DNA from: Bacilli bacterium
GTDB lineage: Bacteria; Bacillota_I; Bacilli_A; RF39; UBA660
Direction of reading: 5' to 3'
Assembly: GCA_022791775.1 (NCBI GenBank)
Contig: JAAVZT010000003.1
Location: 38,980-102,979 of the forward strand
DNA length: 64,000 nucleotides
Shown here: in pieces, positions 1-63,246 of the stretch
Position numbering within the stretch: position 1 is the stretch's first letter
Layout: each line of letters starts with the position of its first letter
Made by a program: the position numbers and the translations under genes
The notes under the pieces: model-generated
Seen by the model: the letters and a program-made list of their open reading frames with translations, nothing else
Told to the model about the DNA's origin: nothing
Databases searched by the model: none

Positions 1-17
1 AACAAATTGAGTTAAAT

Positions 18-779
18 ATGGAAAGTGCTTTACAAAAACAGGAATTTAAAATTTATTATCAACCTAAAGTGTATGTACGAAATGGCTCTCTTGCTGGAGC
101 AGAAGCACTAGTTAGATGGGAGAAAGATGAAACTTTAATTCCACCAAATCATTTTATTCCTCTTTTTGAGAAAAATAAATTCATTATTAAATTAGATTTA
201 TATGTATTTGAAACAGTTTGTAAACACATGAAAGAATGGCGAGAAAAGTGGGAGCATTTTCCTGTGATATCAGTAAATATTTCAAAAGAGCATTTTACGG
301 ATGAAAATTTTATAATAAAATATGCTAAAATTGCCGATAAATATAGCATTCCCCACGAAATGATTGACTTAGAAATAACGGAAAGTGCAACATCTGATGA
401 AAGTATTAATATTGTTCAAATCATCAATAATATCAAAAAACAGGGATTTTTAATCTCTTTAGACGATTTCGGGGTAGGATCCTCATCTTTAGGTATGCTA
501 CAACAATTAAATATTGATATTATCAAAATTGATAAGACCTTTATTGATCAAGCCAATTTAAAAAGTGATCGAAATATTATTAATTACATTGCCTTGATGT
601 CTCAAAAATTAGGTGTCAAAACAATCGTAGAAGGGATCGAAAAAAAAGATCAAGTAGAATTTATCCAAAAATTAAAATGTGATATGATTCAGGGATATTA
701 TTATTCGAAACCGCTACCCAAAAAAGATTTTGAAGAATATCTTCAAGAAAATAAATATTATAAAAAAGGTAAGAAATAA
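18..779 (+). CDS. EAL-domain protein (c-di-GMP phosphodiesterase-like). The reading frame is open back to the window edge, so the gene may be 5'-truncated here
   Basis: Motifs YYQP, EALVRW, DDFGVGSSSL, KIDKTFI, EGIE and QGYYYS are typical of EAL domains. There is no in-frame stop between position 3 and the ATG at 18. Confidence 0.75.
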   Translation: MESALQKQEFKIYYQPKVYVRNGSLAGAEALVRWEKDETLIPPNHFIPLFEKNKFIIKLDLYVFETVCKHMKEWREKWEHFPVISVNISKEHFTDENFIIKYAKIADKYSIPHEMIDLEITESATSDESINIVQIINNIKKQGFLISLDDFGVGSSSLGMLQQLNIDIIKIDKTFIDQANLKSDRNIINYIALMSQKLGVKTIVEGIEKKDQVEFIQKLKCDMIQGYYYSKPLPKKDFEEYLQENKYYKKGKK

Positions 780-29280: not shown

Positions 29281-30540
29281 ATGGAAAGAATAAATTACTA
29301 TTTATATAAAATATTTGGTATACTAAAAGTAGGTGGAAACATGAAAAAAGTGTTAAATTTCAAAAAAGAAAATTTAAAAATTTGCTTGACTGTAATAAGT
29401 GTACTTTTAATGCTAATGGGTTTTGGCTTTTATTATTACCAAAATAATTCTGTAAATCAAGCCAAAGAATTAGAACGAAAAAGAGCGGAAAAAATAGCAG
29501 AAATCTTGCAAAAAGAAATCAATTCCTCTTTAATAGAACAAACGGAAATACAAAACACAATTATTCAAATGGTATTTCAAACAAAAGATCAAGAAAGAAA
29601 AACTTATCTAATTCGAATGCAAGATGGAGAAGAAGTAGGTTTAAAAGAATTAATTAAAGAAGAGCACATGGAAAATTTTAAAAAAAAGGTTAGAGAGTTA
29701 ATCAATTTAAAATATCCTAAATTTATTGCTGATGTTTTAAACTATGGGAATGGGACTGTATCTTACCAACTAAAAGAAAACGAATTAATTTTATATTTTT
29801 ACCAATTTATAATAAACCCGAAATTAGAAGAAGAGATAAACTTGCATGTTAATTATAACGAAATAAAAGATTACATTTCCGTTCCTGTGAAATTAGATGA
29901 TGAATATGAGGTAGAGAATGGCTATCATTATCAAAAGGATAAAAAAACAATTGCTTTAACATTTGATGATGGTCCAAATGGAAAAAGAACTCGAAAATTA
30001 TTAGAATTATTAAGTCAAAATAAAATGCACGCAACATTTTTTATGGTAGGAAATCGAATGGCTGCATCTCCGGATTTGGTAAAAGAAGTATTACAAAGCG
30101 AAAACGAAATAGGAAGTCATTCTTACAATCATAAAAATTTAAGTCGTTTACAAGTGGAAGAATTAAAAAAAGATGCAGAAAATATCAACCATATTTATGA
30201 AAGTATTACTGGCCAAAACTTACATTTATTAAGACCACCTTATGGTAGTGTAAATAATCGAATGAAAGAAAATTTAAATTACGCTTTTGTAAACTGGAAT
30301 TTAGATACAGAAGATTGGCGATATCGTGATTCAAATCATGTATATAATGCAGTGCTAAATAAAGTAGGAGATGGAGATATTATACTAATGCATGACTTAT
30401 ATGATAGCACAGTAGAAGCCGTAGAAAAATTATTGCCCGAATTATATGTACGCGGCTTTCAGGTAGTTAGTGTAACCGAGTTAGCAACCTTAAAAGGAAA
30501 AACATTAGAGCTTCATAATACATATCATTCTTTTAAATAA
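29281..30540 (+). CDS. polysaccharide deacetylase (NodB / carbohydrate esterase 4 domain) with an N-terminal TM helix and a long N-terminal extension. The likely start is the Met at 29341
   Basis: TFDDGP, HSYNH and LRPPYG NodB motifs in the C-terminal half. MKKVLNFKKENLKICLTVISVLLMLMGF is the TM anchor. Confidence 0.8.
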   Translation: MERINYYLYKIFGILKVGGNMKKVLNFKKENLKICLTVISVLLMLMGFGFYYYQNNSVNQAKELERKRAEKIAEILQKEINSSLIEQTEIQNTIIQMVFQTKDQERKTYLIRMQDGEEVGLKELIKEEHMENFKKKVRELINLKYPKFIADVLNYGNGTVSYQLKENELILYFYQFIINPKLEEEINLHVNYNEIKDYISVPVKLDDEYEVENGYHYQKDKKTIALTFDDGPNGKRTRKLLELLSQNKMHATFFMVGNRMAASPDLVKEVLQSENEIGSHSYNHKNLSRLQVEELKKDAENINHIYESITGQNLHLLRPPYGSVNNRMKENLNYAFVNWNLDTEDWRYRDSNHVYNAVLNKVGDGDIILMHDLYDSTVEAVEKLLPELYVRGFQVVSVTELATLKGKTLELHNTYHSFK

Positions 30541-31799: not shown

Positions 31800-32993
31800 A
31801 TGAAAAAAATTTATACAATACTAATTACGATTTTAGTCGTTATACTTTTAGGTGGAAGTTTTTTTTGGTTTACAAATGCTTCCAAAGAAATAGATGAAGT
31901 TGCGATATGGGCAGAAGAACAACTAAAAACACTATCCTTAGATGAAAAAATAGGTCAAATGTTAATTATATCTGATCGAACCCCTACCATGACAGAAAAC
32001 TTATTAAATACTTTAGAAATGACCAAACCAGGTGGCTTTATTTTATTTAGCGAAAACTTTACAACTTATGAAAACACACTTCAATTGATTCAAGCGTTGG
32101 AAGAAACTGCTACAATTCCCTTAATAATGTCCATCGATCAAGAAGGTGGAAGGGTACAACGACTAAAAAATTTAATCAACCAACAAGTGACCAATTTTCC
32201 ATCAATGAATGAACTAAGTTTATTTGGAACAGAAGAAAAAGCTTATCAAGTCGGAAAAGCAATAGGGGAAGAATTACGGGTATTTGGAGTTAATGTTGAT
32301 TTTGCACCCATTTTAGATGTATTAAATACTCCAAATAATGTAATTGGTAATCGTAGCTTCGGAAATAATCCATACTTAGTTTCGAAATTTGGATTAGCAT
32401 TGGCAAAAGGATTGAAAGAAGTCGGCGTAACACCTACATACAAACATTTTCCAGGCCATGGAAGTACGAGCGAAGATTCTCATCAAGAATTACCTATAAT
32501 TGAAAAAACAATCGAGGAATTAAAATCAAATGATCTCATTCCTTTTCAAAATGCTATTGAAAATGGAGCAGAAATTATTATGGTGGGACATTTAGCTTTA
32601 CCAAAAATAACCAATGACAACGTACCTGCTTCGATTTCTTCGAAAATCATAACAGAATTATTAAAAAAAGATATGAATTATCAAGGACTTGTAATTACGG
32701 ATGCCTTAAACATGAAAGCTTTAACAAATCATTTTAGCGAAAAAGAAATTATTATAAAAGCTATTAATGCTGGAGTGGATCTACTATTAATGCCTACGGA
32801 TCCAAAAAGAACCATTAAAATTATAAAACAAGGAATTTTAGATCATGAAATAACAGAAGAGCAAATTAATGACTCTGTCAATAAAATATTACAATTTAAA
32901 AAAAGAAATATAACCAATTTAAAATTAAATCGAGAATATTTAGGAAAGAAAGAACATCAAGAACTAATAGAAAGTTTGAAAAAAAATGAGTAA
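31800..32993 (+). CDS. nagZ: glycoside hydrolase family 3 N-terminal domain protein (beta-N-acetylhexosaminidase NagZ-like), membrane-anchored
   Basis: KIGQMLII, DQEGGRVQRL and KHFPGHG motifs of GH3. N-terminal TM anchor. Confidence 0.8.
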   Translation: MKKIYTILITILVVILLGGSFFWFTNASKEIDEVAIWAEEQLKTLSLDEKIGQMLIISDRTPTMTENLLNTLEMTKPGGFILFSENFTTYENTLQLIQALEETATIPLIMSIDQEGGRVQRLKNLINQQVTNFPSMNELSLFGTEEKAYQVGKAIGEELRVFGVNVDFAPILDVLNTPNNVIGNRSFGNNPYLVSKFGLALAKGLKEVGVTPTYKHFPGHGSTSEDSHQELPIIEKTIEELKSNDLIPFQNAIENGAEIIMVGHLALPKITNDNVPASISSKIITELLKKDMNYQGLVITDALNMKALTNHFSEKEIIIKAINAGVDLLLMPTDPKRTIKIIKQGILDHEITEEQINDSVNKILQFKKRNITNLKLNREYLGKKEHQELIESLKKNE

Positions 32994-42287: not shown

Positions 42288-44120
42288 TTGCCACAAGAAA
42301 ATATGATTGGATATTATTCTAATGAAAAAGAAAATTTCTTTTTAAAACAAAATATTATGATCGGTTCTACGATAAGAATAAAAGGAAAATTAAAAGCTCC
42401 AAGTCATAATACTATTCCCAATACTTTTTCCTATCGTAAATATTTGAAAAGTCAAAATATTTTCTTTGAAATAGAAATAGAAGAAATAGAGCTCATAAAA
42501 CAAGGGGGATTATTAGCCCAAGTGCGAAAATGGATCATCAATCGTTGCAACCGGTTTCCATACGCTTCCTATTTAAAGCAAATTTTGCTAGGAATAAAAG
42601 AGAAAACTGATATCGAAGAGGTGTATCGTCAAAATGGTTTAAGCCACATCTTTGTCATTTCTGGAATGCACATGGGGATGATTTACCAATGGTTTCAAAA
42701 ATTTTGCTCCCGAAAAGTATCTACAAAAAAATCTCAATTAATAGCACTCATTATCTTAACGATTTATCGTTTATTAATTATTCCATCTGCTTCAAGTAAA
42801 CGTGCATATTCTTTTTTTGTTTTTCTGAGTTGGAATAAATGGTCAAAGATAAACTTATCTACGAAACAAATATTTTGGTTTAATTTATGTTTTCATCTGA
42901 TACAAAATCCCAGCTCTATATTCCAAATTAGTTTTCAATATTCATTTTTATTGTCTTTTGCTTTTCTCTATTTTAAAAAGAAATCCTCCAATCAAATATG
43001 GAATCTTTTTTATCATAGTTTATTAGCCTTTTTATTTAGTCTTCCAATTACAGCCTATTATCAATATGCAATAAATCCATGGTCGATTCTAATCAATTGT
43101 ATTATGCTTCCTATTATCACAAAAGTTCTATTTCCATGTTTAATCCTCAGTTTTGCTATTTTCCCTCTTCAGATTTTCGCTTCTAAATGGATCCATATTA
43201 TTGAGAAACTCAATACATATTTTTTTAAGATGCCTGAAAGAGAGTGGATATTACCGAAAGTTCATCCGATTTTACCCATTTTATATTTTCTAATTTTAAT
43301 TTTATTATTGAAGTTTAAAAAAAGAATATTTCGATTTATCTTAGTTTTAATTTTGTTATTTTGGCATTATTATTATAAATTAGATTACCATGGATATCTT
43401 TTCTTTTTGGATGTAGGACAAGGGGATAGTTGTCTCATTATATCACCCTATCAAAAAGAAGTTATTTTGTTAGATACTGGATATAAAAATAAATATTTAA
43501 CAGATAATTTCCTAGTGTTTTTAAAAAGCTATGGTCTTCAAAAAATAAACTTATTAATACTATCACACGGGGATAATGATCATCTAGGAAATGCCAAGGA
43601 ACTTTTAAAAAAAATAGAAATAGATTACATTTGGATGAATGAGGGAAGAAAAAATGCAGCAGAAATAGAACTTGAAGAAACGTATCCCTCAAAAATTATT
43701 ACAAAATATCAACCAATTAATTTAAGTTTTCATAACTTAAGCCATGTAAAAAGAACCACCGAAAATGAAAATAGTCTTGTATTTCATATTTGTATCTATA
43801 AGATGTGTACGTTATTTTTAGGAGATTTAGATAGGACTGGTGAAGAAGAAATTATAAGAAAATATCATCTAAATGCCTCCTTATTAAAAGTAGCACATCA
43901 TGGAGCAAAAACAAGCACAAGTGAAGAACTTTTAAGAAAAATACAGTTTAAAATGGCAATTATTAGCGCTGGGAGAAATAATCAATATCTTCATCCCCAT
44001 AATGAAGTACTAAAAAAACTGGCAAAGTATCAAATTACTATTTTAAATACTCAAGAACAAGGAACCATAAGTTGGAAAATAACCCCTAAAAGATACACCA
44101 TAATAACAAATCCACCATAA
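42288..44120 (+). CDS. comEC: DNA internalisation competence protein ComEC/Rec2. The listed ORF starts at TTG. The in-frame N-terminal TM/OB region extends upstream to about 42081 without a canonical start codon
   Basis: Competence domain with many TM helices and a C-terminal metallo-beta-lactamase domain (FLDVGQGDSCLI...HHGAKTSTS). Upstream in frame is FNHFLAWCLFFTSCYIIW (a TM segment) and a DUF4131-like stretch. Confidence 0.75.
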   Translation: MPQENMIGYYSNEKENFFLKQNIMIGSTIRIKGKLKAPSHNTIPNTFSYRKYLKSQNIFFEIEIEEIELIKQGGLLAQVRKWIINRCNRFPYASYLKQILLGIKEKTDIEEVYRQNGLSHIFVISGMHMGMIYQWFQKFCSRKVSTKKSQLIALIILTIYRLLIIPSASSKRAYSFFVFLSWNKWSKINLSTKQIFWFNLCFHLIQNPSSIFQISFQYSFLLSFAFLYFKKKSSNQIWNLFYHSLLAFLFSLPITAYYQYAINPWSILINCIMLPIITKVLFPCLILSFAIFPLQIFASKWIHIIEKLNTYFFKMPEREWILPKVHPILPILYFLILILLLKFKKRIFRFILVLILLFWHYYYKLDYHGYLFFLDVGQGDSCLIISPYQKEVILLDTGYKNKYLTDNFLVFLKSYGLQKINLLILSHGDNDHLGNAKELLKKIEIDYIWMNEGRKNAAEIELEETYPSKIITKYQPINLSFHNLSHVKRTTENENSLVFHICIYKMCTLFLGDLDRTGEEEIIRKYHLNASLLKVAHHGAKTSTSEELLRKIQFKMAIISAGRNNQYLHPHNEVLKKLAKYQITILNTQEQGTISWKITPKRYTIITNPP

Positions 44121-49535: not shown

Positions 49536-50684
49536 ATGAAAAAAATAACCTTAAAAAAAGACTATAGCATTAAGTTAAAGAGTCAAATAACAAAACATTT
49601 TATGCCGCAGTATGTTTACTTACCCATTCCAAAAGAAGATGAGTTATTCTCTAAAATACAAGTTAAAAAAGAAGAAAAAATTTCTAAATACTTGGTTTCT
49701 CCTGTATCAGGCAAAATTGTAGGTATAAAATATTGTCAAAATGCTTTAGGGGAAATTTTAAAATGTTTAACGATTTTAAATGATTATAAAGAAACTTACA
49801 TCAAACGGACATCAATTCGAAAAAATATTCAACAGTTAAGCCTAGAACAAATAGTGTTAGAATTAAAGGAATATCAATACCATGAAATCGCCGAGAAGCT
49901 TTGGCAGCAAAAAAATGCTAAAATACTTATTTTAAATGGAATCGAAGAAGAACCTTATGTTGCCAATGAAATTTTTTGTAATTTAACGAATCCAAGTATT
50001 ATGTTAGAGATGCTAGATGCTCTAAAAGAAATGAATACATATGAAGAAGTAAAAATAGTAATAAAAAATACAGATCGAGAAAATATTGAAGCATATCATA
50101 ACTTTTTAGGTACTTATCCAAATATGGAGCTTGTATTGGTACCCGATTTTTATCTCGTATCAGAATTCTTAGAGGATTATATGGAATTAAAAAAAGATTA
50201 TCTACTTCTTAAACCCAGTGAATTAAAAATAGCCTATAATGTTTTAAAACGTCGTCATTATCAAACCGAACACTTATTTACAATTAGCGGTGATGGCATT
50301 ACCAATCCCCAAATGATAGAAGCAAAATTGGGAAGTTCTGTTACGGAAATTATGCAAACATATATTCATTTCAAAAAAGAACCATTGAAAATATATATAA
50401 ATGGTATAATGAGAGGAAGAATAACTTCTCTAGAAAATATGATTGTAACTCCAGATCTGCAAGCTATTTTAATTATGAAAGAGTCAACAATTGAAGAAAA
50501 ACTTTGCATTAATTGCGGAAAATGCTATCAAGTTTGTCCCAAAGGATGTAATCCAAGAGCATATTTAGAAAATCGGAATAAAGAAGCCATAAAAAATTGT
50601 ATAGATTGTGGATTATGTTCTTATATATGTCCATCGTTTATTAACCTAAGAAAGGAAATGCAAGATGAAAAGAGAGAAGAATAA
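49536..50684 (+). CDS. RnfC-like protein (degenerate): N-terminal barrel-sandwich domain, ILILNGIEEEPY in place of the NGAECEPY motif, and two 4Fe-4S ferredoxin motifs at the C-terminus
   Basis: VSPVSGKIVGI resembles RnfC_N. CINCGKCYQVCP and CIDCGLCSYICP are two CxxCxxCxxxCP clusters. The Cys of the ECEP motif is replaced by Glu. Confidence 0.5.
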   Translation: MKKITLKKDYSIKLKSQITKHFMPQYVYLPIPKEDELFSKIQVKKEEKISKYLVSPVSGKIVGIKYCQNALGEILKCLTILNDYKETYIKRTSIRKNIQQLSLEQIVLELKEYQYHEIAEKLWQQKNAKILILNGIEEEPYVANEIFCNLTNPSIMLEMLDALKEMNTYEEVKIVIKNTDRENIEAYHNFLGTYPNMELVLVPDFYLVSEFLEDYMELKKDYLLLKPSELKIAYNVLKRRHYQTEHLFTISGDGITNPQMIEAKLGSSVTEIMQTYIHFKKEPLKIYINGIMRGRITSLENMIVTPDLQAILIMKESTIEEKLCINCGKCYQVCPKGCNPRAYLENRNKEAIKNCIDCGLCSYICPSFINLRKEMQDEKREE

Positions 50685-51627
50685 TCGGCCTTACTTAACC
50701 CAGTTTCAACCAAATGAATACCAAAAATATATAACCTATTCCTTAATCTTTTTGCTATGCTATGGTTTTTATAAAAATGGACTTTTACCAATCTTTCATC
50801 AGGACGCCAATATTTGGTATCTACTAAAATTAATGATTTATCCAATCGGAGGCTATCTTTTTGGAAAAATATCAGAAAAATATGGAAAAAATCAAAATGG
50901 CTTTTATGCATTTTACGGATTATTGATAGGAATGAGTATGCCCATTCAGCTAAATTGGTTGCTATTTCTTCTAATATTAGGAATATTATTTTGGCTTTTT
51001 CAAATCTTTTTAGCAAACATAAAATGGTTCAGTCCCTTATTACTAAGTAGAGGTATTTTTTCGCTTTTGATTGTGATAAACTCAGTATCTTTTTTAAATC
51101 CAAGCGAAGGAAATCAGGAAATGGTGTACACCACCTTAGACATATTTTTTGGTAGAAGTATTGGAGGAATTTATACTACAAGCATTTTTTGGCTTTTTAT
51201 TACTTTTTTAATTTTATGTTTTCATGATTTGTACAAAAAAGAAATCCCTGTTTTTGTTTTAATAACCTATATCATGAGTGCTTTATGCTTTGAAATTTTT
51301 CTTCCAACTGGAAATCTTCTTTTAACTATCTTAAATTCTTCCACCATTTTTGCAAGTATATTTCTAGCTTCGGAAATAGTCTCTGCACCCTATATAGATA
51401 AAAGTAAATGGACTTATGGAATACTAGTTGGTTTCTTTGGGTTTCTGTTTGTTCGCTTTATAAATGTCCAAGAAGGGATTTATTTAAGTCTAGCCTTATG
51501 TAGTTTTCTTCCTCCTTTATTGGATAAATGGTTTTATCATAGGCAAAAAAAGAGAAGTTTTGTCGATTCATCAAAGCCAAAAATACCTTTTGCAAAAAAT
51601 AACCTTCCAAAATTAAAAAAATCTTAA
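50665..51627 (+). CDS. RnfD/NqrB-like polytopic membrane protein (divergent)
   Basis: Position directly after the RnfC-like gene (overlapping by 20 nt). 8-10 TM helices. The FMN-attachment and Gly-rich RnfD motifs are not evident. Confidence 0.4.
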   Translation: MKREKNNRPYLTQFQPNEYQKYITYSLIFLLCYGFYKNGLLPIFHQDANIWYLLKLMIYPIGGYLFGKISEKYGKNQNGFYAFYGLLIGMSMPIQLNWLLFLLILGILFWLFQIFLANIKWFSPLLLSRGIFSLLIVINSVSFLNPSEGNQEMVYTTLDIFFGRSIGGIYTTSIFWLFITFLILCFHDLYKKEIPVFVLITYIMSALCFEIFLPTGNLLLTILNSSTIFASIFLASEIVSAPYIDKSKWTYGILVGFFGFLFVRFINVQEGIYLSLALCSFLPPLLDKWFYHRQKKRSFVDSSKPKIPFAKNNLPKLKKS

Positions 51628-51755
51628 ATAAATTTTCTTAAATCGTCAAAAAAAGGACTTTAATTTTATAAATTAGAGTCCTTTTTTCATGTCTTTACAA
51701 ATAAAAAAAACGATTTTATAGTATGACTGCGATTCGCAAATAGAAAGGAAAAATT

Positions 51756-53198
51756 ATGAAAAAGCTATTAAAATATCTCTTGTTGGGAGTTGGAATTTTT
51801 TTCATTGGGAAAGAAATAAGTTCTGCAGGAAGTGCTTTTTATTTAGAGCCAGCACCAAATGGATTAACCTATAAGATTAACAAAGGCTATAAAACAGTAA
51901 GACTTTATTTTCAAATGGTGCAAGATCGGATAACAAAAGAATATATTTATTGTTTAGAACCAGGGGTTCAGTTAAGTAATCAAACATATGAAGAATGGAA
52001 TGAATGGGATTACAATAAATTTAACTTAAGCAAAGAGCAAAAAGATTTTATTGTAAGAGTAGCATATTATGGTTATGGATATCAAAATCATACTAGCCTA
52101 GATTATTACTATGCAGCTCAATTATTAATATGGGAGAAAATTATTCCAAAAGATTGGGACATTTACTATACAACATCTTTAGACGGAGAACGCATTTTAC
52201 TTTATCAAAAAGAGCGAGAAGATATATTAACTTTAATTGAAAATGATCAAAAAAATTCTGCCTTTGAAAATCAAGTATTTGAGTGGAATGACAAAGAATC
52301 TCTTTATATAGAAGATCAAAATGGAGTGTTAAAAGATTATCGGCTTTTAACCAATTCAAGTTGGAAAATTACTCATAGCGGAAATTCGCTTCAAATTCAA
52401 AATACAAATTTACAAGAACAAGTTTTAGAATTTGAAAAAACATATGAAGGAGAACCTTTAAAATTTTATTGGCAAGAAGAAGGTCAAAAGGTATTAAAGC
52501 GAGGAAGTATCATTCCAAGACGATTTCGTATGACGCTAAAGCCGTTTCACATAAAGTTAGAAATAGATAAACAAAATGAAGAAAAAGAACCACTTGAAAA
52601 AGTTTTGTTTCACTTATATGCTAAGGAAGATATTAAAGATAAAGAAGAAAATATTCGTTTCCAAAAAAATGACAAAGTAGCAGAAGGTTGGACTGATCAA
52701 AACGGCAAAATAATTTTTGATAATTTATGGTCTGGAAATTACTACTTAAAAGAAATGGAATCTCCTAAGGATTACCAGTTATTAGAAGAAGACATACCAA
52801 TTACATTAGAAAAAGAATCAAAACATATCGTCATTCAAAATGAAAAAAAGAAACAAGATTTAATTCTTCAAAAAGTGGATAGCGATTCCAATGTTCCGTT
52901 GTCAAAAGTACGCTTTCAAATCAAAAATGCTCAAGAAGAGATCGTGTTTGATGGTCGAACAGACGAAAACGGGCAAATAATTTTAAAAGACCTACCAGTT
53001 GGAGATTATATAATTTTGGAAATAGAAACGATCGAAGATTACATCTTATTAAAAGAACCGCTTCGGATTACTTTGAACGGAGAAACATCGAAAACAGAAA
53101 TCAAAATTACTAATCGTAAAATAAAAAAAGTTCCAGATACCTACCAAAAAAGAATATGGATAGAATGGTTTTGGATTGATAGGAAAAGATACACATGA
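51756..53198 (+). CDS. secreted adhesin/pilin-like protein: signal peptide, putative thioester domain (YCLEP...AQLLIW), CnaB/SpaA-type domains and a C-terminal non-canonical sorting signal VPDTYQ + hydrophobic segment + DRKRYT
   Basis: CnaB signatures WTDQNGKIIFDNLWSGNYYLKEMESPKDY and TDENGQIILKDLPVGDYIILE. The C-terminal architecture mimics an LPXTG sorting signal. A sortase gene lies downstream. Confidence 0.6.
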   Translation: MKKLLKYLLLGVGIFFIGKEISSAGSAFYLEPAPNGLTYKINKGYKTVRLYFQMVQDRITKEYIYCLEPGVQLSNQTYEEWNEWDYNKFNLSKEQKDFIVRVAYYGYGYQNHTSLDYYYAAQLLIWEKIIPKDWDIYYTTSLDGERILLYQKEREDILTLIENDQKNSAFENQVFEWNDKESLYIEDQNGVLKDYRLLTNSSWKITHSGNSLQIQNTNLQEQVLEFEKTYEGEPLKFYWQEEGQKVLKRGSIIPRRFRMTLKPFHIKLEIDKQNEEKEPLEKVLFHLYAKEDIKDKEENIRFQKNDKVAEGWTDQNGKIIFDNLWSGNYYLKEMESPKDYQLLEEDIPITLEKESKHIVIQNEKKKQDLILQKVDSDSNVPLSKVRFQIKNAQEEIVFDGRTDENGQIILKDLPVGDYIILEIETIEDYILLKEPLRITLNGETSKTEIKITNRKIKKVPDTYQKRIWIEWFWIDRKRYT

Positions 53199-54169
53199 AA
53201 AAAAATTTATTAATCATCTTTTGTTTTCTTTTTCTCTTTTTAAAAAATACGAAAGCTAGCATGTTAAATTTTCATGTCACAGAATGGGTTCCAACTACTT
53301 ATCAAATAAATGATACATTAACTTCATTTCAAATTTATCAGAGCAATAATACAGAGCATTTTATGTATCAAGTAAGTCCTTTAGAAAAAATAAAATACCA
53401 AACAGATTATAAACAAAGTTCTCATTTAGAAGAAATGGATCGCACCGAATTAAATAAAATTAAATATTGGATTAGCGAGACCGAAAAATCAGAAGACATT
53501 AATGATAAATATTACTTTTATGTTAATATTCAACTTCTGATATGGAAACTCTTTCACCCCGACATTGAGGTGGAAATGGTAGGAAATAAAGAGTTGGTCG
53601 AAAAATATTATGATAAATTATTATTACTTCTTCCGAATCCACCAAATTGGGTACATGACTATGAAATGCAAGAAGAAATCATCTTAGAAGTCAGTGACCA
53701 ATATGAGATTATTTCAAATCAGTGTGAGGTAGAAAAAAACGAAAACCAAATCATTTTAACCAAATGTGAAGACAATGCCAAAATTGAAGTAAAAGAAAAA
53801 GGAGAAGATACCATCTTAGCGTTAGAAGATAAAACTGGAGAATTAAAAGTATTAGAAGGAGGAAATTTCCCTTGGACTTGGGAATTTCAGATCCTGCCTT
53901 CTAAACGGCCTGAAATTCCAGAAGAAAAGCCAAATCCTCCGATAAAAGAGGAAGAAGAAAAGCCAAATTCTCAACCGGAAGAGAAACCAGAGGACTCCAA
54001 TGACAATTTAAATTCGGATAAAATAGATAAGTCAGAAAATTTACCCAATCAATCAGAGTATGAAGAAGAAAAAAGAGTAATTACAAATGTTCCTAATACT
54101 TATCAAAGTTCTTTTGAAATTTTATGGCTCTTTCTCTTCCTCCTAGGAATTTATCAGTGGAAAAAATAA
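53195..54169 (+). CDS. paralogous secreted protein with a C-terminal VPNTYQ sorting-signal-like tail and a Pro/Glu-rich linker. It lacks the thioester Cys (YQVSP instead of YCLEP)
   Basis: Shares ...TYQIN..., ...QLLIW... and the C-terminal (K/N)VPxTYQ + hydrophobic segment + KK with the upstream gene. PEEKPNPPIKEEEEKPNSQPEEKPE is the stalk-like linker. Confidence 0.55.
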   Translation: MKKNLLIIFCFLFLFLKNTKASMLNFHVTEWVPTTYQINDTLTSFQIYQSNNTEHFMYQVSPLEKIKYQTDYKQSSHLEEMDRTELNKIKYWISETEKSEDINDKYYFYVNIQLLIWKLFHPDIEVEMVGNKELVEKYYDKLLLLLPNPPNWVHDYEMQEEIILEVSDQYEIISNQCEVEKNENQIILTKCEDNAKIEVKEKGEDTILALEDKTGELKVLEGGNFPWTWEFQILPSKRPEIPEEKPNPPIKEEEEKPNSQPEEKPEDSNDNLNSDKIDKSENLPNQSEYEEEKRVITNVPNTYQSSFEILWLFLFLLGIYQWKK

Positions 54170-54699
54170 AATATTTTCTGATCTTGCTTCTGATTTTTCT
54201 TTTATTTTGGGGATCAAGTATCAATTTCAGCAAAGAAATATTAAGAACTGAAACTCAGCAAAAAGACATGAATGAATATCTAAATCAAACGAATAATCAG
54301 CCTTTATTTGGAATTTTAGAAATCCCTAAAATTAATTTAAAACAACCCATTTATCCCAAAGATGACCCAAAAAATCAAGTGGATAAAAATATTACACTTT
54401 TAGAAGAAGACGTAACTCAAAATGTACCAAACCCAGTTATCATCCTGGCCTCTCATTCTGGAAATGGTCCATATGCATACTTTAAAAATTTGACATCCTT
54501 AAAAGAAGGAGATGCCATTTTTTTATGGCTAAAAAGCGAGCAAAAAGAATATCGGTTGATAAAGAAAGAAGAAGTAATGAAAAATGAAACCCTATATGTA
54601 AAAACATTTTCTTTTTCTCATTTAATTTTAATAACTTGTAGTAAAACAAATTCGAAAATTCAAGAGATATATTATGCCAAATATATTTCAAATAAATAA
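54124..54699 (+). CDS. srtA: sortase (class A-like transpeptidase). The probable start is the GTG at 54157
   Basis: Aligns by eye with S. aureus SrtA: GILEIPKINLKQPIYPK, LASHSG (His), FKNLTSLKEGDAIFL, LILITC (TLxTC catalytic Cys). N-terminal TM anchor KIKYFLILLLIFLLFW. AGGAA lies 9 nt before the GTG. Confidence 0.8.
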   Translation: MALSLPPRNLSVEKIKYFLILLLIFLLFWGSSINFSKEILRTETQQKDMNEYLNQTNNQPLFGILEIPKINLKQPIYPKDDPKNQVDKNITLLEEDVTQNVPNPVIILASHSGNGPYAYFKNLTSLKEGDAIFLWLKSEQKEYRLIKKEEVMKNETLYVKTFSFSHLILITCSKTNSKIQEIYYAKYISNK

Positions 54700-58907: not shown

Positions 58908-60530
58908 ATGAATATGAATCCAACCACTGTAGAATCTAATAATAAAAATCCTTTCAAATTGCCATCTTTAGGTCTATTTATTACCTTTAAAACTATTGTG
59001 GAATATGTTATCTTAATTATTCAATTTGCTTTTCGCGGCTTTAAATTTTTAACAATTGATTTATTCATGGCTCTTTATAACGCTCTAAGTGGAGGAGTCG
59101 ATCATGCCTATCAAAAAACAAAACATATCGTCACAAAGGATAATATTGCTCCATCTACAGCTCCTAAAAAAGAAAGCATTTTAAATGCAGATCTATCAAC
59201 ATTATTTAAAAATTCCTTTTTTATGAAAAAAAAATTAGCCAAATTAGAAGCTCAGAAAATAGCCTTAGCAGAAGAACTAAAAGGAAATGGAGCTATCCGT
59301 TCTAAAGAACCCAAAGTATTTAAATTTACTGCCAAAAACAAAAATGGTAAAATTGAATCAGGGGTAATTAGTGGGTTTAGTAAATTAGATGTTAATACGT
59401 TCTTAGTTCAAGAAGAATACGAAGTATATAATATTATATCAAACGAGTGGACCGAATTTATATATGGACAAACAAGCATCTTTACTCCAAAAATGAAAAC
59501 GAAAGACTTATTATTTTGGTTAACACAATTATCTACTTATATTAAAAGTGGAATTACTTTAACAGACTCAATTAAAATCTTAAATAACCAAATGGGCAAA
59601 AACAAAAATTATAAAAGAGCTTTTCAGTCAATTGTTTACGAGTTAACCATGGGGGAATCATTCTCGAAAGCTTTAGAAAAACAAGGTGTCATGTTTCCAG
59701 CCTTACTCATCAATATGATTAAAGCTGCAGAGGCAACTGGTGAATTAGAAGAAACGTTGAGTGATATGGCCAATTATTACGATGAAATTGATAAAACCCA
59801 TAAACAAATGATCAGTGCAATTACCTATCCATCTGTTATTTTAGTATTTTCCATTGCAGTTATTACATTTATCTTAGTTTTTATCATTCCGCAATTTGTT
59901 GAAATTTATAAAGAATCTGAAGTAGAAATAAATGGTTTAACCTTATTTATTATCCATATGAGTGATTTCTTGAAAGAAAATATAGGATTTTTATTGATCA
60001 TTGCTATAGCGAGCATTGCAGTATTAATCTTTTCTTATCAAAAAGTAAAAGCATTTCGAAAAAGTATGCAAACTTTTTTAATGCATGTTCCCGTTTTTGG
60101 CAAAATTATGATATATAATGAAATGGCTGTTTTTGCCAAAACATTTTCTTCCTTATTACGAAATAATGTATTTATTACCGAAAGTATTGATATTTTGAGT
60201 AAGATTACAAATAATGAGATTTATAAAGAAATTATGTATAATACCATTAATAATATTGTAAAAGGGGAAAAAATAAGCGAAGCCTTTAAAAACCAATGGG
60301 CTGTTCCAGAAGTGGCATATTATATGATCGTAACAGGAGAATCAACTGGGCAATTAGCAGAAATGATGAGCAAAGTTAGTAGCTATTACCAAGAAATGCA
60401 TCGTAGTATTATTTCCAGCTTAAAAGCCTTCATAGAACCAGTATTGATTACCTTTCTTGCTGTAATTGTCGGAGGAATCATTTTAGCTGTTATTGTACCA
60501 ATGTTTAATTTAATGAACCAATTTGGGTAG
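58908..60530 (+). CDS. comGB: type II secretion / type IV pilus / competence platform protein (GspF/PilC/ComGB family) with a roughly 130-aa N-terminal extension
   Basis: Two T2SSF domains starting near FKFTAKNKNGKIESGVISGFS. GGGAGG ribosome-binding site before the ATG at 58908. Confidence 0.75.
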   Translation: MNMNPTTVESNNKNPFKLPSLGLFITFKTIVEYVILIIQFAFRGFKFLTIDLFMALYNALSGGVDHAYQKTKHIVTKDNIAPSTAPKKESILNADLSTLFKNSFFMKKKLAKLEAQKIALAEELKGNGAIRSKEPKVFKFTAKNKNGKIESGVISGFSKLDVNTFLVQEEYEVYNIISNEWTEFIYGQTSIFTPKMKTKDLLFWLTQLSTYIKSGITLTDSIKILNNQMGKNKNYKRAFQSIVYELTMGESFSKALEKQGVMFPALLINMIKAAEATGELEETLSDMANYYDEIDKTHKQMISAITYPSVILVFSIAVITFILVFIIPQFVEIYKESEVEINGLTLFIIHMSDFLKENIGFLLIIAIASIAVLIFSYQKVKAFRKSMQTFLMHVPVFGKIMIYNEMAVFAKTFSSLLRNNVFITESIDILSKITNNEIYKEIMYNTINNIVKGEKISEAFKNQWAVPEVAYYMIVTGESTGQLAEMMSKVSSYYQEMHRSIISSLKAFIEPVLITFLAVIVGGIILAVIVPMFNLMNQFG

Positions 60531-60538
60531 GGGGATTT

Positions 60539-61306
60539 ATGAATTATTTGAATACAACATTCTTTATCATAATTGGAGCCATTTTAGGTTCCTTTTATGC
60601 TGTAATTGGGACAAGACTTCCCAAAAACGAATCTATTATATCACCGAGAAGTCACTGTGAATATTGTGGACATATATTATCTTGGTATGAGTTGATCCCA
60701 ATTCTTTCCTTTTTCTTCCAAAAAGGAAAATGCAGAAACTGTCATCATCATTTATCATCTATGTATCCATTAACAGAATTGGCAACAGGACTATTATTTG
60801 GAATATCCTATTATTATTTTGGAATATCTGAGAAATTTTTTCATTTGCTTCTTTTATCTAGCCTAGTCATAATTATATTTGTTAGTGATATGAAATATAT
60901 GATTATACTTGATTCGCCTTTAGTAATAAGTGGAATTGGAATCTTTTTATTAAATATTAGTTTCCATGGCATAGAAAAAGCGTTATTAAGTTTAGGAGCG
61001 GGATTTCTTTCCTTTTTGACCCTTTTTTTTATTGGAAAATTAGGAAACATTTTATTTCAAAAAGAAGCGATGGGTGGGGGAGATATAAAACTATCTTTTA
61101 TTATGGGAATGAGTTTAGGATACAAAATGTATTTAATTGCATTTATCTTAGCGACTTTCTTAGCCTTACCTTATGCGTTAGGATGTCTATTTTTCCAAAA
61201 AGATCATGAAGTTCCTTTTGGACCTTTTTTAGTATCTTCATTATGGATTGTCTTTTTCTTCTATGAAAAATTTCATTATATTATAACTTTTTTATTAAAC
61301 CTTTAA
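60539..61306 (+). CDS. comC: prepilin peptidase (A24 family; PilD/ComC)
   Basis: N-terminal CxxC...CxxC zinc motif (CEYCGH...CRNCHH), 8 TM helices, and the catalytic Asp region GGGDIKL. Confidence 0.85.
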   Translation: MNYLNTTFFIIIGAILGSFYAVIGTRLPKNESIISPRSHCEYCGHILSWYELIPILSFFFQKGKCRNCHHHLSSMYPLTELATGLLFGISYYYFGISEKFFHLLLLSSLVIIIFVSDMKYMIILDSPLVISGIGIFLLNISFHGIEKALLSLGAGFLSFLTLFFIGKLGNILFQKEAMGGGDIKLSFIMGMSLGYKMYLIAFILATFLALPYALGCLFFQKDHEVPFGPFLVSSLWIVFFFYEKFHYIITFLLNL

Positions 61307-61338
61307 CGAATTCAAAACAATATGATATACTAAAGAAG

Positions 61339-61848
61339 GTGAGAAGTATGTTAGATTGGCTAACTAAAGAATTAGCTTGCATAGGATTTATTGGAAGCAT
61401 TATAGTATTTCTTCTATGCTTTCCATGGATTAAAAAAATATACAAACATTATGAAGAAATTATGAATTACTTAATCGTGGGGGTTTTAACAACCATTGTT
61501 AGCTTAGTAATTTATTATGGACTTGTATTTACGATATTAAATCCAAACAAAGCCTTAGAGTTACAAATTGCTAATATAATATCCTGGATCGGGGCAGTTT
61601 TATTTGCGTATATTACCAATCGGCGCTATGTATTTAAAAGTCAGAATAAAGAAACAAAAAAAGAATTTTGTTCCTTTTTTGGCTCTCGATTATTAACCTT
61701 AGGACTAGATATGGGAATTATGTTTTTAGGTGTAACCATATGTCATCAAAGTGATAAAAGTATGAAATTGCTCTCACAAATATTAGTAATTATAGGCAAT
61801 TATATTTTAAGTAAATTATTTGTATTTAAAAAGAAAACGGAAAAGTAA
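61339..61848 (+). CDS. GtrA-family membrane protein
   Basis: 4 TM helices. NRRYVF and the GNYILSKLFVF C-terminus are typical of GtrA. Confidence 0.65.
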   Translation: MRSMLDWLTKELACIGFIGSIIVFLLCFPWIKKIYKHYEEIMNYLIVGVLTTIVSLVIYYGLVFTILNPNKALELQIANIISWIGAVLFAYITNRRYVFKSQNKETKKEFCSFFGSRLLTLGLDMGIMFLGVTICHQSDKSMKLLSQILVIIGNYILSKLFVFKKKTEK

Positions 61849-61857
61849 TTTCCGTTT

Positions 61858-63246
61858 TTAAATGTCTAACGTTTCTAAAGCCGTTTCTTCACTGCTAGGT
61901 TCTACTTCTAAACTTTTTTTACCAAAAATAGCATCTTTAATTGCACTATCATGTTCTCCTAAGTCATCATCCACATCAATAACTCGTAATACTTCTTCGA
62001 AACTAGTAAGACCCTCTAAAACTTTATAAAGCCCGTCTTGTAAAATAGAAATCATATCTTGATTTTCATAAATCAAATGTCTCAAGTCTTCCTTTTTCAT
62101 ATTATTTACAATAGCATCTCGTAAATCTTGATTAATAATTAATACTTCATGTAAGGCTACTCGGCCATGATACCCATGATAACATTCGTTACAGCCCACA
62201 GGTGTATAAATATCAGTAATATCCATATTGAGTGCACTTTTAAAAACTTTTTGCTCATAAGGAGTTGCTTTTCGACTACTTCTACATTTTGGACACAATT
62301 TTTTACATAATCGTTGGGAAATAATACCTTCTAGGGCACTTCCTAATAAATATCGTTCTACATCCATATCGACAAGTCGTTCAATTGTATTTAGAGAGTT
62401 ATTTGTATGAATAGTAGATAAAACTAAGTGTCCAGTAATAGAAGCTCGAACGGCAATCCGGGCTGTTTCATTATCACGAATTTCTCCGATCATAATTACA
62501 TCGGGATCTTGACGAAGAATGCTTCGTAAAGCGCTCGCAAAGGTTAAACCAATTTCACTCATCGTTTGGACCTGATTGACTCCATTTAATTTCATTTCGA
62601 CTGGATCTTCAACAGTAATTACGTTGCGACTAATCGTATTTAATCGTTGTAAGATCGTATAAACTGTAGTAGACTTACCTGTCCCAGTGGCTCCAGTTAC
62701 TAATATAATTCCATTCGGCTTAGAAATCACTTTTAAGAGTTTTTCATAATTTGCTTCGGAAAATCCCAAAGTTTCCAAACCGCCAAGACTCATGGAATAA
62801 TCTAAAATACGGATAACCACTTTTTCTCCATACACAGTTGGCAGGGAACTGACACGCAAATCCAAATTAAGACCATCTACATTACTGCGAATCGCCCCAT
62901 CTTGAGGAAGACGAGATTCTGTAATATTCATTCCAGAAATAATTTTAATGCGAGTAATCAAATTCTTTTTTACAGCCATGGGTACTTCTGCATATTGAAT
63001 GAGTTCTCCATCAACTCGAATTCGCACAATTAAATTCCCAGGGGTTTGATCAAAATGAATATCACTTGCTTTTCGTCGCGCTGCATCAATTATCATATCA
63101 TTTACAATATCTACAATTGGCATATTGTCATAATCGTAATTCTTTAACACAAAATCACCAGTTCCTTTTATTCTTTCACTTATTATACAAAAAAAACCTT
63201 CAAAGAACAAGTTATAATCATAGATTTCAGATTCAAAATACGACAA
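61858..63246 (-). CDS. comGA: type II/IV secretion ATPase (GspE/PilB/ComGA family)
   Basis: Walker A VTGATGTGKSTT, Asp box, Walker B VIMIGEIRD, His box, and a C-terminal tetracysteine CxxC...CxxC. Confidence 0.85.
   Translation of the reverse strand: MSYFESEIYDYNLFFEGFFCIISERIKGTGDFVLKNYDYDNMPIVDIVNDMIIDAARRKASDIHFDQTPGNLIVRIRVDGELIQYAEVPMAVKKNLITRIKIISGMNITESRLPQDGAIRSNVDGLNLDLRVSSLPTVYGEKVVIRILDYSMSLGGLETLGFSEANYEKLLKVISKPNGIILVTGATGTGKSTTVYTILQRLNTISRNVITVEDPVEMKLNGVNQVQTMSEIGLTFASALRSILRQDPDVIMIGEIRDNETARIAVRASITGHLVLSTIHTNNSLNTIERLVDMDVERYLLGSALEGIISQRLCKKLCPKCRSSRKATPYEQKVFKSALNMDITDIYTPVGCNECYHGYHGRVALHEVLIINQDLRDAIVNNMKKEDLRHLIYENQDMISILQDGLYKVLEGLTSFEEVLRVIDVDDDLGEHDSAIKDAIFGKKSLEVEPSSEETALETLDI

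Follow-up and report, generated by a model that had tools for sequence, protein, structure and literature searches.

Three consecutive genes in the window (the whole stretch of 64,000 nucleotides analysed here, from a gut bacterium) are probably best explained together as one surface-adhesin module, composed of a thioester-domain (TED) protein (P1), a TED paralogue without the thioester residues (P2) and a dedicated sortase. The arrangement is most likely one of head and base, in which P1 would be the reactive head, carried or presented by P2, the sortase-anchored base. Sequence and structure model place P1 among the Class II TED adhesins of the TIE type.

The P1-P2-sortase locus

The features of the locus are collected in Table 1. 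The terminator-like hairpin and the promoter-like site ahead of P1 suggest, as sequence patterns, that P1, P2 and the sortase gene form a separate transcription unit. The P1 stop codon and the P2 start overlap as ATGA, and the order rnfC/D-like, P1, P2, sortase, dnaG is kept, with this overlap, in at least 8 other MAG species. The sortase ORF opens at 54124 with a likely true start at the GTG at 54157, which has AGGA ahead of it; the Pfam match of its product upholds the dedicated sortase that the first-pass annotation had placed beside the pair. Rfam and tRNA scans of the window gave no match relevant to the locus. Genetic code 4 (TGA = Trp) was considered, since MAG relatives are labelled Tenericutes, and was rejected: TGA within an ATGA overlap ends P1 and every one of its orthologues, and code 11 yields housekeeping ORFs of full length.

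Table 1. Features of the P1-P2-sortase locus, in window positions and protein residues.
Feature	Window position	Residues	Strand	Basis or remark
Terminator-like hairpin after rnfD-like gene	51649-51687		+	Sequence pattern match
Promoter-like site TTTACA-17-TATAGT, upstream of P1	51694-51722		+	Consensus scan, pattern match
P1	51756-53198	480 aa	+	Positions from direct translation of the window
P1 signal peptide		about 1-24	+	Domain layout
P1 TED		about 26-263	+	Pfam TED, AlphaFold, Foldseek
P1 YCLE, [YFL]CΦζ motif	51948-51959		+	Aligns with SaTIE C296 at Cys
P1 C66, predicted thioester Cys	51951-51953	66	+	End of β-strand 63-66
P1 AQLLIW, TQXXΦW motif on helix 115-129	52116-52133	121-126	+	Q122 adjoins the predicted thioester, not its partner
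P1 Q244 (EEGQKVL), predicted thioester-forming Gln	52485-52487	244	+	Directly before β-strand 246-248
P1 CnaB/SpaA isopeptide domains, two	52548-53120	about 265-362, 366-455	+	Pfam SpaA 4.6e-31
P1 sorting-signal remnant, VPDTY then QKRIWIEWFWIDRKRYT	53130-53195 (VPDTY 53130-53144)		+	No membrane-spanning helix
P2	53195-54169	324 aa	+	
P2 signal peptide		1-21	+	
P2 Class II TED-like domain, thioester-less		about 23-236	+	hhalign, AlphaFold
P2 Q59, column of the thioester Cys	53369-53371	59	+	Family HMM, hhalign alignments
P2 QLLIW, retained TQXXΦW-type helix motif	53531-53545	113-117	+	P2 orthologue alignment
P2 disordered Pro/Glu-rich linker		about 237-296	+	AlphaFold pLDDT <50
P2 VPNTY	54089-54103		+	Followed by TM helix and KK tail
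Dedicated sortase	54124-54699		+	Pfam Sortase, 46 bits

Fold and predicted thioester residues of P1

NCBI names P1 a 'Cys-Gln thioester bond-forming surface protein', and Pfam TED (PF08341) matches its residues 64-139 (33.8 bits; cut-off 22). Together with the two SpaA domains matched behind it, this agrees with the TED and Cna B folds anticipated by the first-pass annotation. An NCBIfam search of P1 gave no TED match, and a word-indexed protein search returned one match at 55% identity. Profile and structure comparisons reach further: the P1 family profile aligns with SaTIE-TED (6fx6) across the whole domain at E 2e-28 and with BaTIE (6fwv) at 9e-62, with identity to solved TEDs of about 18%. 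The AlphaFold model (pLDDT 92.7) has 6fwv BaTIE as its best Foldseek match (E 3e-27, 476 columns) and superposes on 6fx6 with a TM of 0.72 over 247 columns.

These matches are to the Class II SaTIE/BaTIE type, and P1 is moved away from the Class I Cpa/SfbI-type family to which it had initially been compared: in the model, β-strands 174-248 after helix 151-164 would form the seven-stranded β-sandwich, inserted between α3 and strand P, that marks Class II. P1 has this insert as well as the Cys motif, the strand-Q Gln and the TQXXΦW helix by which a TED is recognised. It also has the CnaB-type stalk with Lys/Glu/Asn(Asp) triads of a TIE protein, the triads being conserved by column (K272/E333/N362 and K373/E422/N453); K272 aligns with the isopeptide Lys of BaTIE, K297.

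Translation places the two motifs of the first-pass annotation where it had them, IYCLEPG at residues 64-70 and YYYAAQLLIW at residues 117-126; position 51951 is the start of the codon for C66, the sole Cys of the protein. By phmmer, YCLEP and AAQLLIWE of P1 pair with FCIEP and ATQMLIWE of SaTIE-TED 6fx6. Among 151 aligned homologues, Cys is kept in 149, the motif Gln in all 151 and Trp in 149, and P1 shares Ala for the Thr of TQXXΦW with 30 of them.

Q122 had been taken as the Gln of the thioester, and the Cys-to-Gln change alone as what kills P2. We regard this reading as hardly credible. It can call on two TED signatures that are real and almost invariant, and on the fact that the motif Gln adjoins the Cys in solved TEDs. 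However, helix α2 carries the Gln and Trp of TQXXΦW beside the bond, where they hydrogen-bond the Cys backbone and are non-bond-forming and non-essential, and the bond-forming Gln of Class II domains lies on β-strand Q, about 170-205 residues past the Cys (Miller 2018, PMC6194298). The 56 residues between C66 and Q122 fall far from the Cys-Gln spacing of solved Class II TEDs (171-204; 188 in TIEpLS20), and the proven Gln of SaTIE (Q467) and BaTIE (Q266) aligns instead with P1 Q244, 178 residues past C66. Q244 is conserved in 83/83 sequences, and in 142/144 among those with a residue at that column. In the model, C66, Q122 and Q244 map to strand C, helix α2 and strand Q, a placement that matches Miller 2018. 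From these alignments we predict that the thioester partner of C66 is Q244, not Q122. Adjacency of C66 and Q122 in a predicted structure, which had been suggested as a check, would therefore come out positive for the wrong reason, since Q122 adjoins the bond in any case.

P2, the sorting signals and the sortase

P2 is annotated by NCBI as 'hypothetical protein'. Pfam and NCBIfam searches of P2 gave no match (Pfam TED included), a metagenome scan with a P2 profile gave none, and the word-indexed protein search found only P2 itself and a near-identical variant, even with a profile as the query. Its relation to P1 emerges from direct comparison: the motif positions of the two line up by BLASTP (E 0.001), by the family HMM (28.9 bits for P2) and, once the signal peptides are taken off, by hhalign (97.5%, E 6e-12, 191 columns). 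The AlphaFold model of P2 (core pLDDT 80-94, helix 306-323) has significant PDB fold matches only to 6fx6, 6fwv and 6fwy, three Class II TEDs, but its TED-like fold is partly built in, because the input alignment was dominated by true TEDs; the independent support for homology is the hhalign result and the HMM score. On these sequence comparisons P2 is a real, very diverged TED homologue.

At the position of the P1 Cys, P2 reads MYQVSP (residues 57-62) with Q59, and it keeps QLLIW, as the first-pass annotation had noticed. In the P2 orthologues, which were taken from neighbouring ORFs at related loci, the Cys column holds T in 5, S in 2 and L in 1. At the column of Q244, P2 itself has Gly or Glu, and no Gln is conserved there among the orthologues; the Q and W of IQLLIW are invariant in 9/9. 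P2 keeps the fold and the TQXXΦW helix of a TED and lacks both the bond-forming Cys and the bond-forming Gln, so that it would be thioester-dead twice over. The earlier claim of a dead copy thus holds on broader grounds than the lost Cys, and the kept QLLIW is uninformative on reactivity. A decaying pseudogene was also considered and rejected: the ORF is intact and has residues invariant in nine species.

The two proteins differ at their C-termini. A complete sortase signal consists of a motif, a hydrophobic helix and a basic tail, and in P1 the hydrophobic helix is missing: the tail after VPDTY is short, basic and non-hydrophobic (KD13 -0.51). We compared nine related MAG loci, found from an alignment of the 9 closest sequences. 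No hydrophobic segment follows VPxT in any of the 9/9 P1 orthologues (maximum KD13 <=0.07), whereas one is present in 9/9 P2 sequences, including the P2 part of a fusion (KD13 1.5-3.4). In the species with this fusion, P1 and P2 are a single ORF of 735 aa, which runs from VPDTLEE straight into the mature N-terminus of P2 and has lost both the P1 tail and the signal peptide of P2; the fused ORF is present in each of two independent assemblies, at 99.96% identity. With P1 lacking a helix, P2 having one and a natural fusion of the two, P2 is most likely a wall-anchored base for P1. We know of no sortase that processes a sorting signal without a membrane helix.

More distant relatives have a TED protein and a sortase at the same chromosomal site and no P2. 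One such TED protein (locus L022) has its own TM anchor and another (P0011, locus L021) ends directly after IPDT with no TM, which shows that anchor loss and the presence of P2 do not strictly go together. A further distant relative, L023, adjoins an SSB gene.

The sortase has catalytic residues His111 (ASHSG) and Cys172 (LITCS). The Arg expected after the Cys is absent in all 12 related sortases, and Q180-E181 is invariant in its place; without the catalytic Arg, activity is uncertain. The sortase passes generic sortase models only: the NCBIfam class C model (NF033745) gives 52.1 bits where its cut-off is 160, and the His-Cys-Arg triad that class C also demands is incomplete. Its presumed substrates carry VPxT followed by a variable residue.

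The proposed head-and-base arrangement and comparison with known systems

We propose the following course of events. P1 would be secreted and its TED would fold, with C66 and Q244 forming an internal thioester against which Q122 and W126 of the neighbouring helix would pack, and with two isopeptide-stabilised CnaB domains as the stalk. By analogy with SfbI, the thioester would react with a nucleophile on the target, typically a Lys amine, and attach P1 covalently. P2 most likely arose within the clade by duplication of a TED gene. In the process the two bond-forming residues and the CnaB stalk would have been lost, a disordered, wall-spanning linker rich in Pro and Glu would have been added, and the fold, the TQXXΦW helix and what appears to be the pair's only complete sorting signal (VPNTY, TM, basic tail) would have been retained. 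P1 would have kept the VPxT motif and lost the membrane helix. It may be attached to P2 covalently, by sortase at its VPDT, or as a complex. The covalent route in its specific form is a tentative and rather doubtful proposal: the clade would have split one sortase-anchored adhesin into two genes, with P2 providing both the hold on the membrane and the anchor in the wall, and the Arg-less sortase would recognise VPxT with a variable residue after it and join Thr462 of P1 to P2, at a Lys or at the mature N-terminus. The fusion in the sister species would then mimic the sortase-joined product. The first-pass annotation had suggested a tip adhesin with a shaft or regulatory partner; a reactive head with a non-reactive partner is retained from that suggestion, and the partner looks instead like a wall-anchored base, with its linker and the sole real membrane anchor.

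Tandem paralogous surface proteins with one shared sortase are common, and P1 and P2 could on that account be functionally independent, with P2 a non-covalent wall-anchored adhesin or spacer and P1 released or held by its basic tail. We judge this unlikely, given that the anchors are complementary at 9/9 loci, that the genes are translationally coupled through their ATGA overlaps and that the in-frame fusion drops precisely the two segments named above. The fusion, which speaks for a 1:1 ratio of head to base, also weighs on the view that P2 is a polymerising shaft pilin, built by the sortase into a P2 pilus fibre with P1 at its tip. That view draws on the [VI]PxTG-type motifs typical of pilins (e.g., RrgC VPDTG), on class C being the class that the sortase matches best, if weakly, and on an order of tip adhesin and sortase that recalls pilus islands. 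It appears quite improbable to us, since the disordered Pro/Glu/Lys-rich linker of 50-100 residues is typical of a wall-spanning region and not of a shaft pilin, the class C score is far too low, and P2 has no CnaA/CnaB pilin domains, no YPKN-type motif and no invariant Lys; as to a pilin-type acceptor Lys, none is conserved among the P2 orthologues, K88 being just near-invariant. Lastly, P2 might react by another chemistry, with an ester between Thr/Ser at the former Cys position and the retained Gln, or might be the nucleophile target meant for the P1 thioester, or its cap. Thr or Ser at the Cys column in 7/9 orthologues and the QxxIW Gln invariant in 9/9 would suit an ester, and Thr-Gln ester cross-links in other adhesin domains are described in a preprint on ester-bond crosslinks in adhesins. 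Yet the P2 of the window has Gln and the fused species Leu at this column, which leaves both unable to form an ester, there is no strand-Q Gln, the ester domains that are known have another fold and a catalytic triad, and no observation points to P2 as the thioester target. We hold such a role for P2 to be very improbable.

TED adhesins bind their targets covalently and are abundant in gut Firmicutes; to our knowledge, almost all of those in gut Firmicutes lack a known target. P1 by itself is no novelty, given its existing NCBI annotation as a thioester protein. The new element is that an anchor-less TED, predicted to be reactive, is consistently paired with an anchored, thioester-less TED paralogue, together with a dedicated sortase that has Gln at the position of the catalytic Arg and presumed substrates with VPxT and a variable residue. 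If the head-and-base arrangement is true, it shows a covalent adhesin divided between two genes, and it would offer sortase biochemists a naturally divergent pair of enzyme and motif. If the sortase also joins the two proteins, adhesins in two pieces would have a new assembly route, and the enzyme would represent a sortase subfamily whose active site and motif are non-canonical. The analysis also corrects a common trap, in which the well-conserved Gln of TQXXΦW is mistaken for the thioester Gln.

Among known systems, the two-subunit Gram-positive pili with [VIY]PxTG motifs and class C sortases (S. pneumoniae RrgA/RrgC) likewise combine an adhesin, a smaller anchor gene and a sortase, and have VPxT-type sorting motifs in common with P1 and P2. 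The present locus, in contrast, encodes no major pilin, and its Arg-less sortase scores below class C. The sorting motifs have a residue other than Gly at their fifth position, a degenerate TED takes the place of a CnaB pilin as the base, and the tip subunit has no membrane helix. Cpa and SfbI of S. pyogenes (Class I; Walden 2015, PMC4450167) use the same Cys-Gln thioester to capture a target Lys and share the [YFL]C and TQXXΦW motifs with P1, and Cpa is a pilus tip adhesin; Class I TEDs, however, have an extra helix α0 and lack the β-sandwich insert of ~75 residues (PMC6194298), and P1 fits Class II.

Closer in class is TIEpLS20 (p34), an adhesin from plasmid pLS20 of B. subtilis that conjugation requires; its Class II TED (C68-Q256) is followed by CnaB-like domains, as in P1 (PMC8092201). 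It has no typical sorting signal and its retention at the surface is an open question (PMC8092201), a parallel to the anchor-less P1. TIEpLS20 is plasmid-borne, in a conjugation operon with no sortase (PMC8092201), whereas the P1 module is chromosomal, is flanked by an rnfD-like gene and dnaG and comes with P2 and a sortase of its own. The best profile and fold matches of P1 remain BaTIE (B. anthracis, 6FWV) and SaTIE (S. aureus, TED 6FX6; PMC6194298), which have the same layout of signal peptide, Class II TED, CnaB domains and sortase motif and share with P1 the three motifs and the Cys-Gln spacing. P1 differs from them in having two CnaB domains compared with three and VPDTY without a membrane helix in place of LPATG, and, unlike BaTIE and SaTIE, it is accompanied by a thioester-less TED paralogue downstream and a dedicated Arg-less sortase.

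The P1–P2–sortase module and its setting

Three plus-strand genes make up the module, namely P1 (the thioester-domain protein), its paralogue P2 and a sortase gene, with rnfC-like and rnfD-like genes upstream and dnaG and rpoD downstream. G+C content is about 29% and the window sequence is matched by the Bacilli MAG contig GCA_965115265.1. A pattern scan placed a putative terminator-like hairpin and promoter-like site between the rnfD-like gene and P1. Related loci were collected from GTDB genomes and public assemblies (MAGs of uncultured Bacilli, Erysipelotrichaceae or "Tenericutes", some labelled as mouse-gut catalogue or rabbit samples). The order rnfC-like, rnfD-like, P1, P2, sortase, dnaG, rpoD is kept in at least eight further species, and the P1 stop and P2 start overlap (ATGA).

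Features of the window
Feature	Position	Strand	Remarks
P1	51756-53198	+	480 aa; direct translation
P1 C66 codon	51951-53		
P1 sorting motif	53130-53144	+	[VI]PxT type
P2	53195-54169	+	324 aa; direct translation
P2 C177	53723-53725		β-sandwich half
P2 C191	53765-53767		β-sandwich half
P2 sorting motif	54089-54103	+	[VI]PxT type
Sortase ORF	54124-54699	+	third gene, after P2
Likely sortase start	54157		GTG
Sortase C172 codon	54637-54639		TLxTC-type Cys
Sortase Q180-E181	54661-54666		
rnfC-like + rnfD-like genes	49536-51627		directly 5′ of TED module
Competence / type IV pilus-like genes	58908-63246	-	just 3′ of locus
ComEC gene	42288-44120		
Repeat protein	27391-29103	+	secreted, 570 aa
Polysaccharide deacetylase gene	29281-30540		3′ of repeat gene
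GH3 gene	31800-32993		after deacetylase gene

The rnfC-like gene, with a weak Complex1_51K match and 4Fe-4S clusters, and its rnfD-like neighbour adjoin the module in every locus (the pair is seen in the window, L009, L010, L013-L017, L021 and L022) and are one fused ORF in L009 (122-2194); no further rnf subunits lie alongside the pair in these small genomes. The competence-like set comprises a T2SSF platform protein, a probable prepilin peptidase and a PilB/ComGA-like ATPase. The repeat protein is a second, different type of sortase substrate: it carries about 13 tandem Cys-containing repeats of about 27 residues (…CxILSDGTRYGKNGTIVDELTYQKECERNV…) without a Pfam match, and ends in a classical sorting signal (NPQTG, TM helix, basic tail).

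P1 and its predicted thioester

P1 is a Class II TIE (thioester/isopeptide/ester domain) adhesin with one thioester domain (TED) and two CnaB domains, as shown by Pfam domain matches and by matches of phmmer, profile comparison and an AlphaFold model to the solved proteins SaTIE and BaTIE. The thioester domain suspected in the first-pass annotation is recognised by Pfam TED (PF08341; 33.8 bits, cut-off 22, residues 64-139), and the CnaB check that it proposed returns two SpaA/CnaB domains (4.6e-31). Direct translation places IYCLEPG at residues 64-70 and YYYAAQLLIW at 117-126 (Q122), as it had read them; C66 is the sole Cys. With the N-terminal 239 residues, phmmer retrieves SaTIE-TED (6fx6), pairing YCLEP with FCIEP and AAQLLIWE with ATQMLIWE. 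HMMER, run exhaustively against 1.84 billion representatives, gave 1007 homologues at E<1e-3 (467 at E<1e-10); for the best 150, the motif columns hold Cys in 149/151, Gln (the Q122 column) in 151/151 and Trp in 149/151 sequences. A profile of 83 homologues matches nearly the whole crystallised domain of 6fx6 (E 2e-28) and BaTIE (6fwv) at 9e-62. The best PDB matches of the model (mean pLDDT 92.7) are BaTIE (E 3e-27, 476 columns) and SaTIE-TED (TM 0.72), and conservation extends to the isopeptide triads K272/E333/N362 and K373/E422/N453, with K272 aligning to BaTIE K297. In NCBI this very protein is entered as "Cys-Gln thioester bond-forming surface protein". P1 alone is a routine, already annotated member of the Class II TED/TIE family, a very large one whose reported clusters count their MGnify homologues in the tens of thousands (PMC9210967).

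Three TED motifs have been set out (Miller, Banfield and Schwarz-Linek, 2018; PMC6194298): strand C carries the bond Cys within [YFL]CΦζ, strand Q carries the bond-forming Gln within a weak ΦQζΦΦ motif, and the Gln and Trp of TQXXΦW (helix α2) adjoin the bond, hydrogen-bond the Cys backbone and are dispensable for bond formation. Proven Cys-Gln pairs are SaTIE C296-Q467, BaTIE C71-Q266 and EfmTIE86 C88-Q292 (PMC6194298); the TIEpLS20 pair C68-Q256 is modelled (PMC8092201). When the chains are numbered by offset from their aligned Cys residues, SaTIE Q467 (chain index 218) and BaTIE Q266 (index 235) both land in the column that P1 Q244 occupies in the profile; that column is Gln in 83/83 sequences, and in 142 of the 144 with a residue there in the wider alignment. 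In the P1 model, C66 ends strand 63-66, Q122 lies in helix 115-129 and Q244 just before strand 246-248, in agreement with the published TED topology. The predicted thioester is C66-Q244, with Q122 as the flanking TQXXΦW residue. Of the C66-Q122 pair proposed earlier, C66 stands as the predicted bond Cys and Q122 does not stand as its partner, since Q467 and Q266 align with Q244; the structural test suggested for that pair, C66 beside Q122, would pass without proving the intended point.

P2 and the sortase

P2 is labelled hypothetical by NCBI and has no match in Pfam, NCBIfam or PDB sequence searches; it meets P1 in BLASTP at E 0.001 and the family HMM at 28.9 bits. A P2-type set (n=9: eight separate proteins plus the P2 portion of a fused ORF, signal peptides removed) aligned to the TED family by hhalign at 97.5% probability (E 6e-12, 191 columns, both lobes covered). 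The AlphaFold model was built on an alignment in which true TEDs predominate; its core reaches pLDDT values of about 80-94, and the three Class II TED structures are the only PDB entries that it matches significantly. MYQVSP (57-62, Q59) and QLLIW (113-117) lie where the first-pass annotation had read them, and its Cys-to-Gln, thioester-dead copy is borne out: the Cys column is Gln in the window's P2 and Thr (5), Ser (2) or Leu (1) in orthologues, and the Q244 equivalent is also absent (Gly or Glu by aligner, with no conserved Gln in orthologues). All nine P2 sequences keep the Gln and Trp of the TQXXΦW-type motif. As judged from these alignments, P2 is a TED homologue without either bond-forming residue. 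Cys-less TEDs also occur sporadically elsewhere, as 2/151 family members lack the Cys. Two Cys are conserved in the β-sandwich half of P2, C191 without exception and C177 in ≥90% of the sequences aligned. Placed on either side of a β-hairpin by the model, the two may form a disulfide; P1 has no counterpart of them.

P1 and P2 show complementary losses, of the anchor in P1 and of the reactive residues in P2. VPxT-x-(E/Q) is kept in 9/9 P1 orthologues; the tail of about 18-21 residues after it is non-hydrophobic and closes with a basic cluster (13-residue Kyte-Doolittle peak ≤0.07). The TED-like domain of P2 is followed by a linker of the wall-spanning type and then by a full sorting signal (VPNTY, TM helix, KK); in its model pLDDT is <50 at 253-305, spanning most of the Pro/Glu-rich linker, before a C-terminal helix at 306-323. 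A hydrophobic helix is found in 9/9 P2 sequences including the fused one (Kyte-Doolittle 1.5-3.4), and in 107/129 motif-bearing proteins of the wider family. Across that family (150 homologues, P0001-P0152) the sorting motif is [VI]PxT, its fifth position varying (Y, G, S, F, K, E, others), and LPxTG occurs in only 2 of about 129 motif-bearing proteins.

Only generic sortase models of Pfam/NCBIfam pass for the sortase (class C model 52 bits, cut-off 160). Its likely start is the GTG preceded by AGGA, giving an N-terminus resembling those of orthologues. His111 and Cys172 are conserved, and when the profile is aligned with solved sortases the match breaks off immediately past the Cys. No conserved Arg follows the Cys in 12/12 related sortases, nor is there an invariant Arg column in 9 aligned clade sortases; a conserved Gln follows it in 12/12 (L010-L023), within TCSK-x5-QE[IV]YYA[KR] in the P2-bearing clade and KQ[IL]V in remoter relatives. 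This Gln (Q180) probably occupies the position of R197 (RKIFVA) in SrtA.

A proposed head-and-base arrangement and related systems

We infer that P1 would be the distal reactive head, its C66-Q244 thioester atop a two-domain isopeptide stalk and directed at a target, and P2 the proximal base, which the sortase would process and anchor to the wall. P1 would reach the surface via P2, through sortase-catalysed transfer of the VPDT threonine to P2 or in a non-covalent complex. What the data themselves establish is the homology, the fold, the residue conservation, the complementary losses, the shared gene order and a gene fusion. The fusion occurs in one species, which encodes P1 and P2 together in one 735-aa ORF (L011 155-2362; L020 3-1919; 99.96% identity between two independent assemblies from different samples). 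In it an internal VPDTLEE is followed at once by the P2 part from its mature N-terminus onward, the P1 tail and P2 signal peptide having been precisely deleted.

A tip adhesin with a shaft or regulatory subunit had been proposed earlier. A reactive/non-reactive pair beside a sortase agrees with the comparison of loci; P2 is less probable as a shaft pilin, because its linker is disordered, it has no pilin domains and the natural fusion is 1:1. Independent function of P1 and P2 is a less likely alternative to the head-and-base model. Remoter relatives (31-35% identity) at the same chromosomal site have the sortase and lack P2, one bearing its own TM anchor, which suggests that P2 arose by a duplication specific to the clade and that the two copies then divided their tasks. 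Our literature search, limited in scope, did not turn up any account of a TED paralogue that lacks the thioester and serves as anchor partner of an anchor-less TED adhesin.

A distant TED and sortase pair (L023, 1332-3914) lies beside an SSB gene and small uncharacterised genes, not at the rnfD/dnaG site, and possibly belongs to a mobile or conjugative element; its setting recalls TIEpLS20, a TED adhesin with a role in conjugation.
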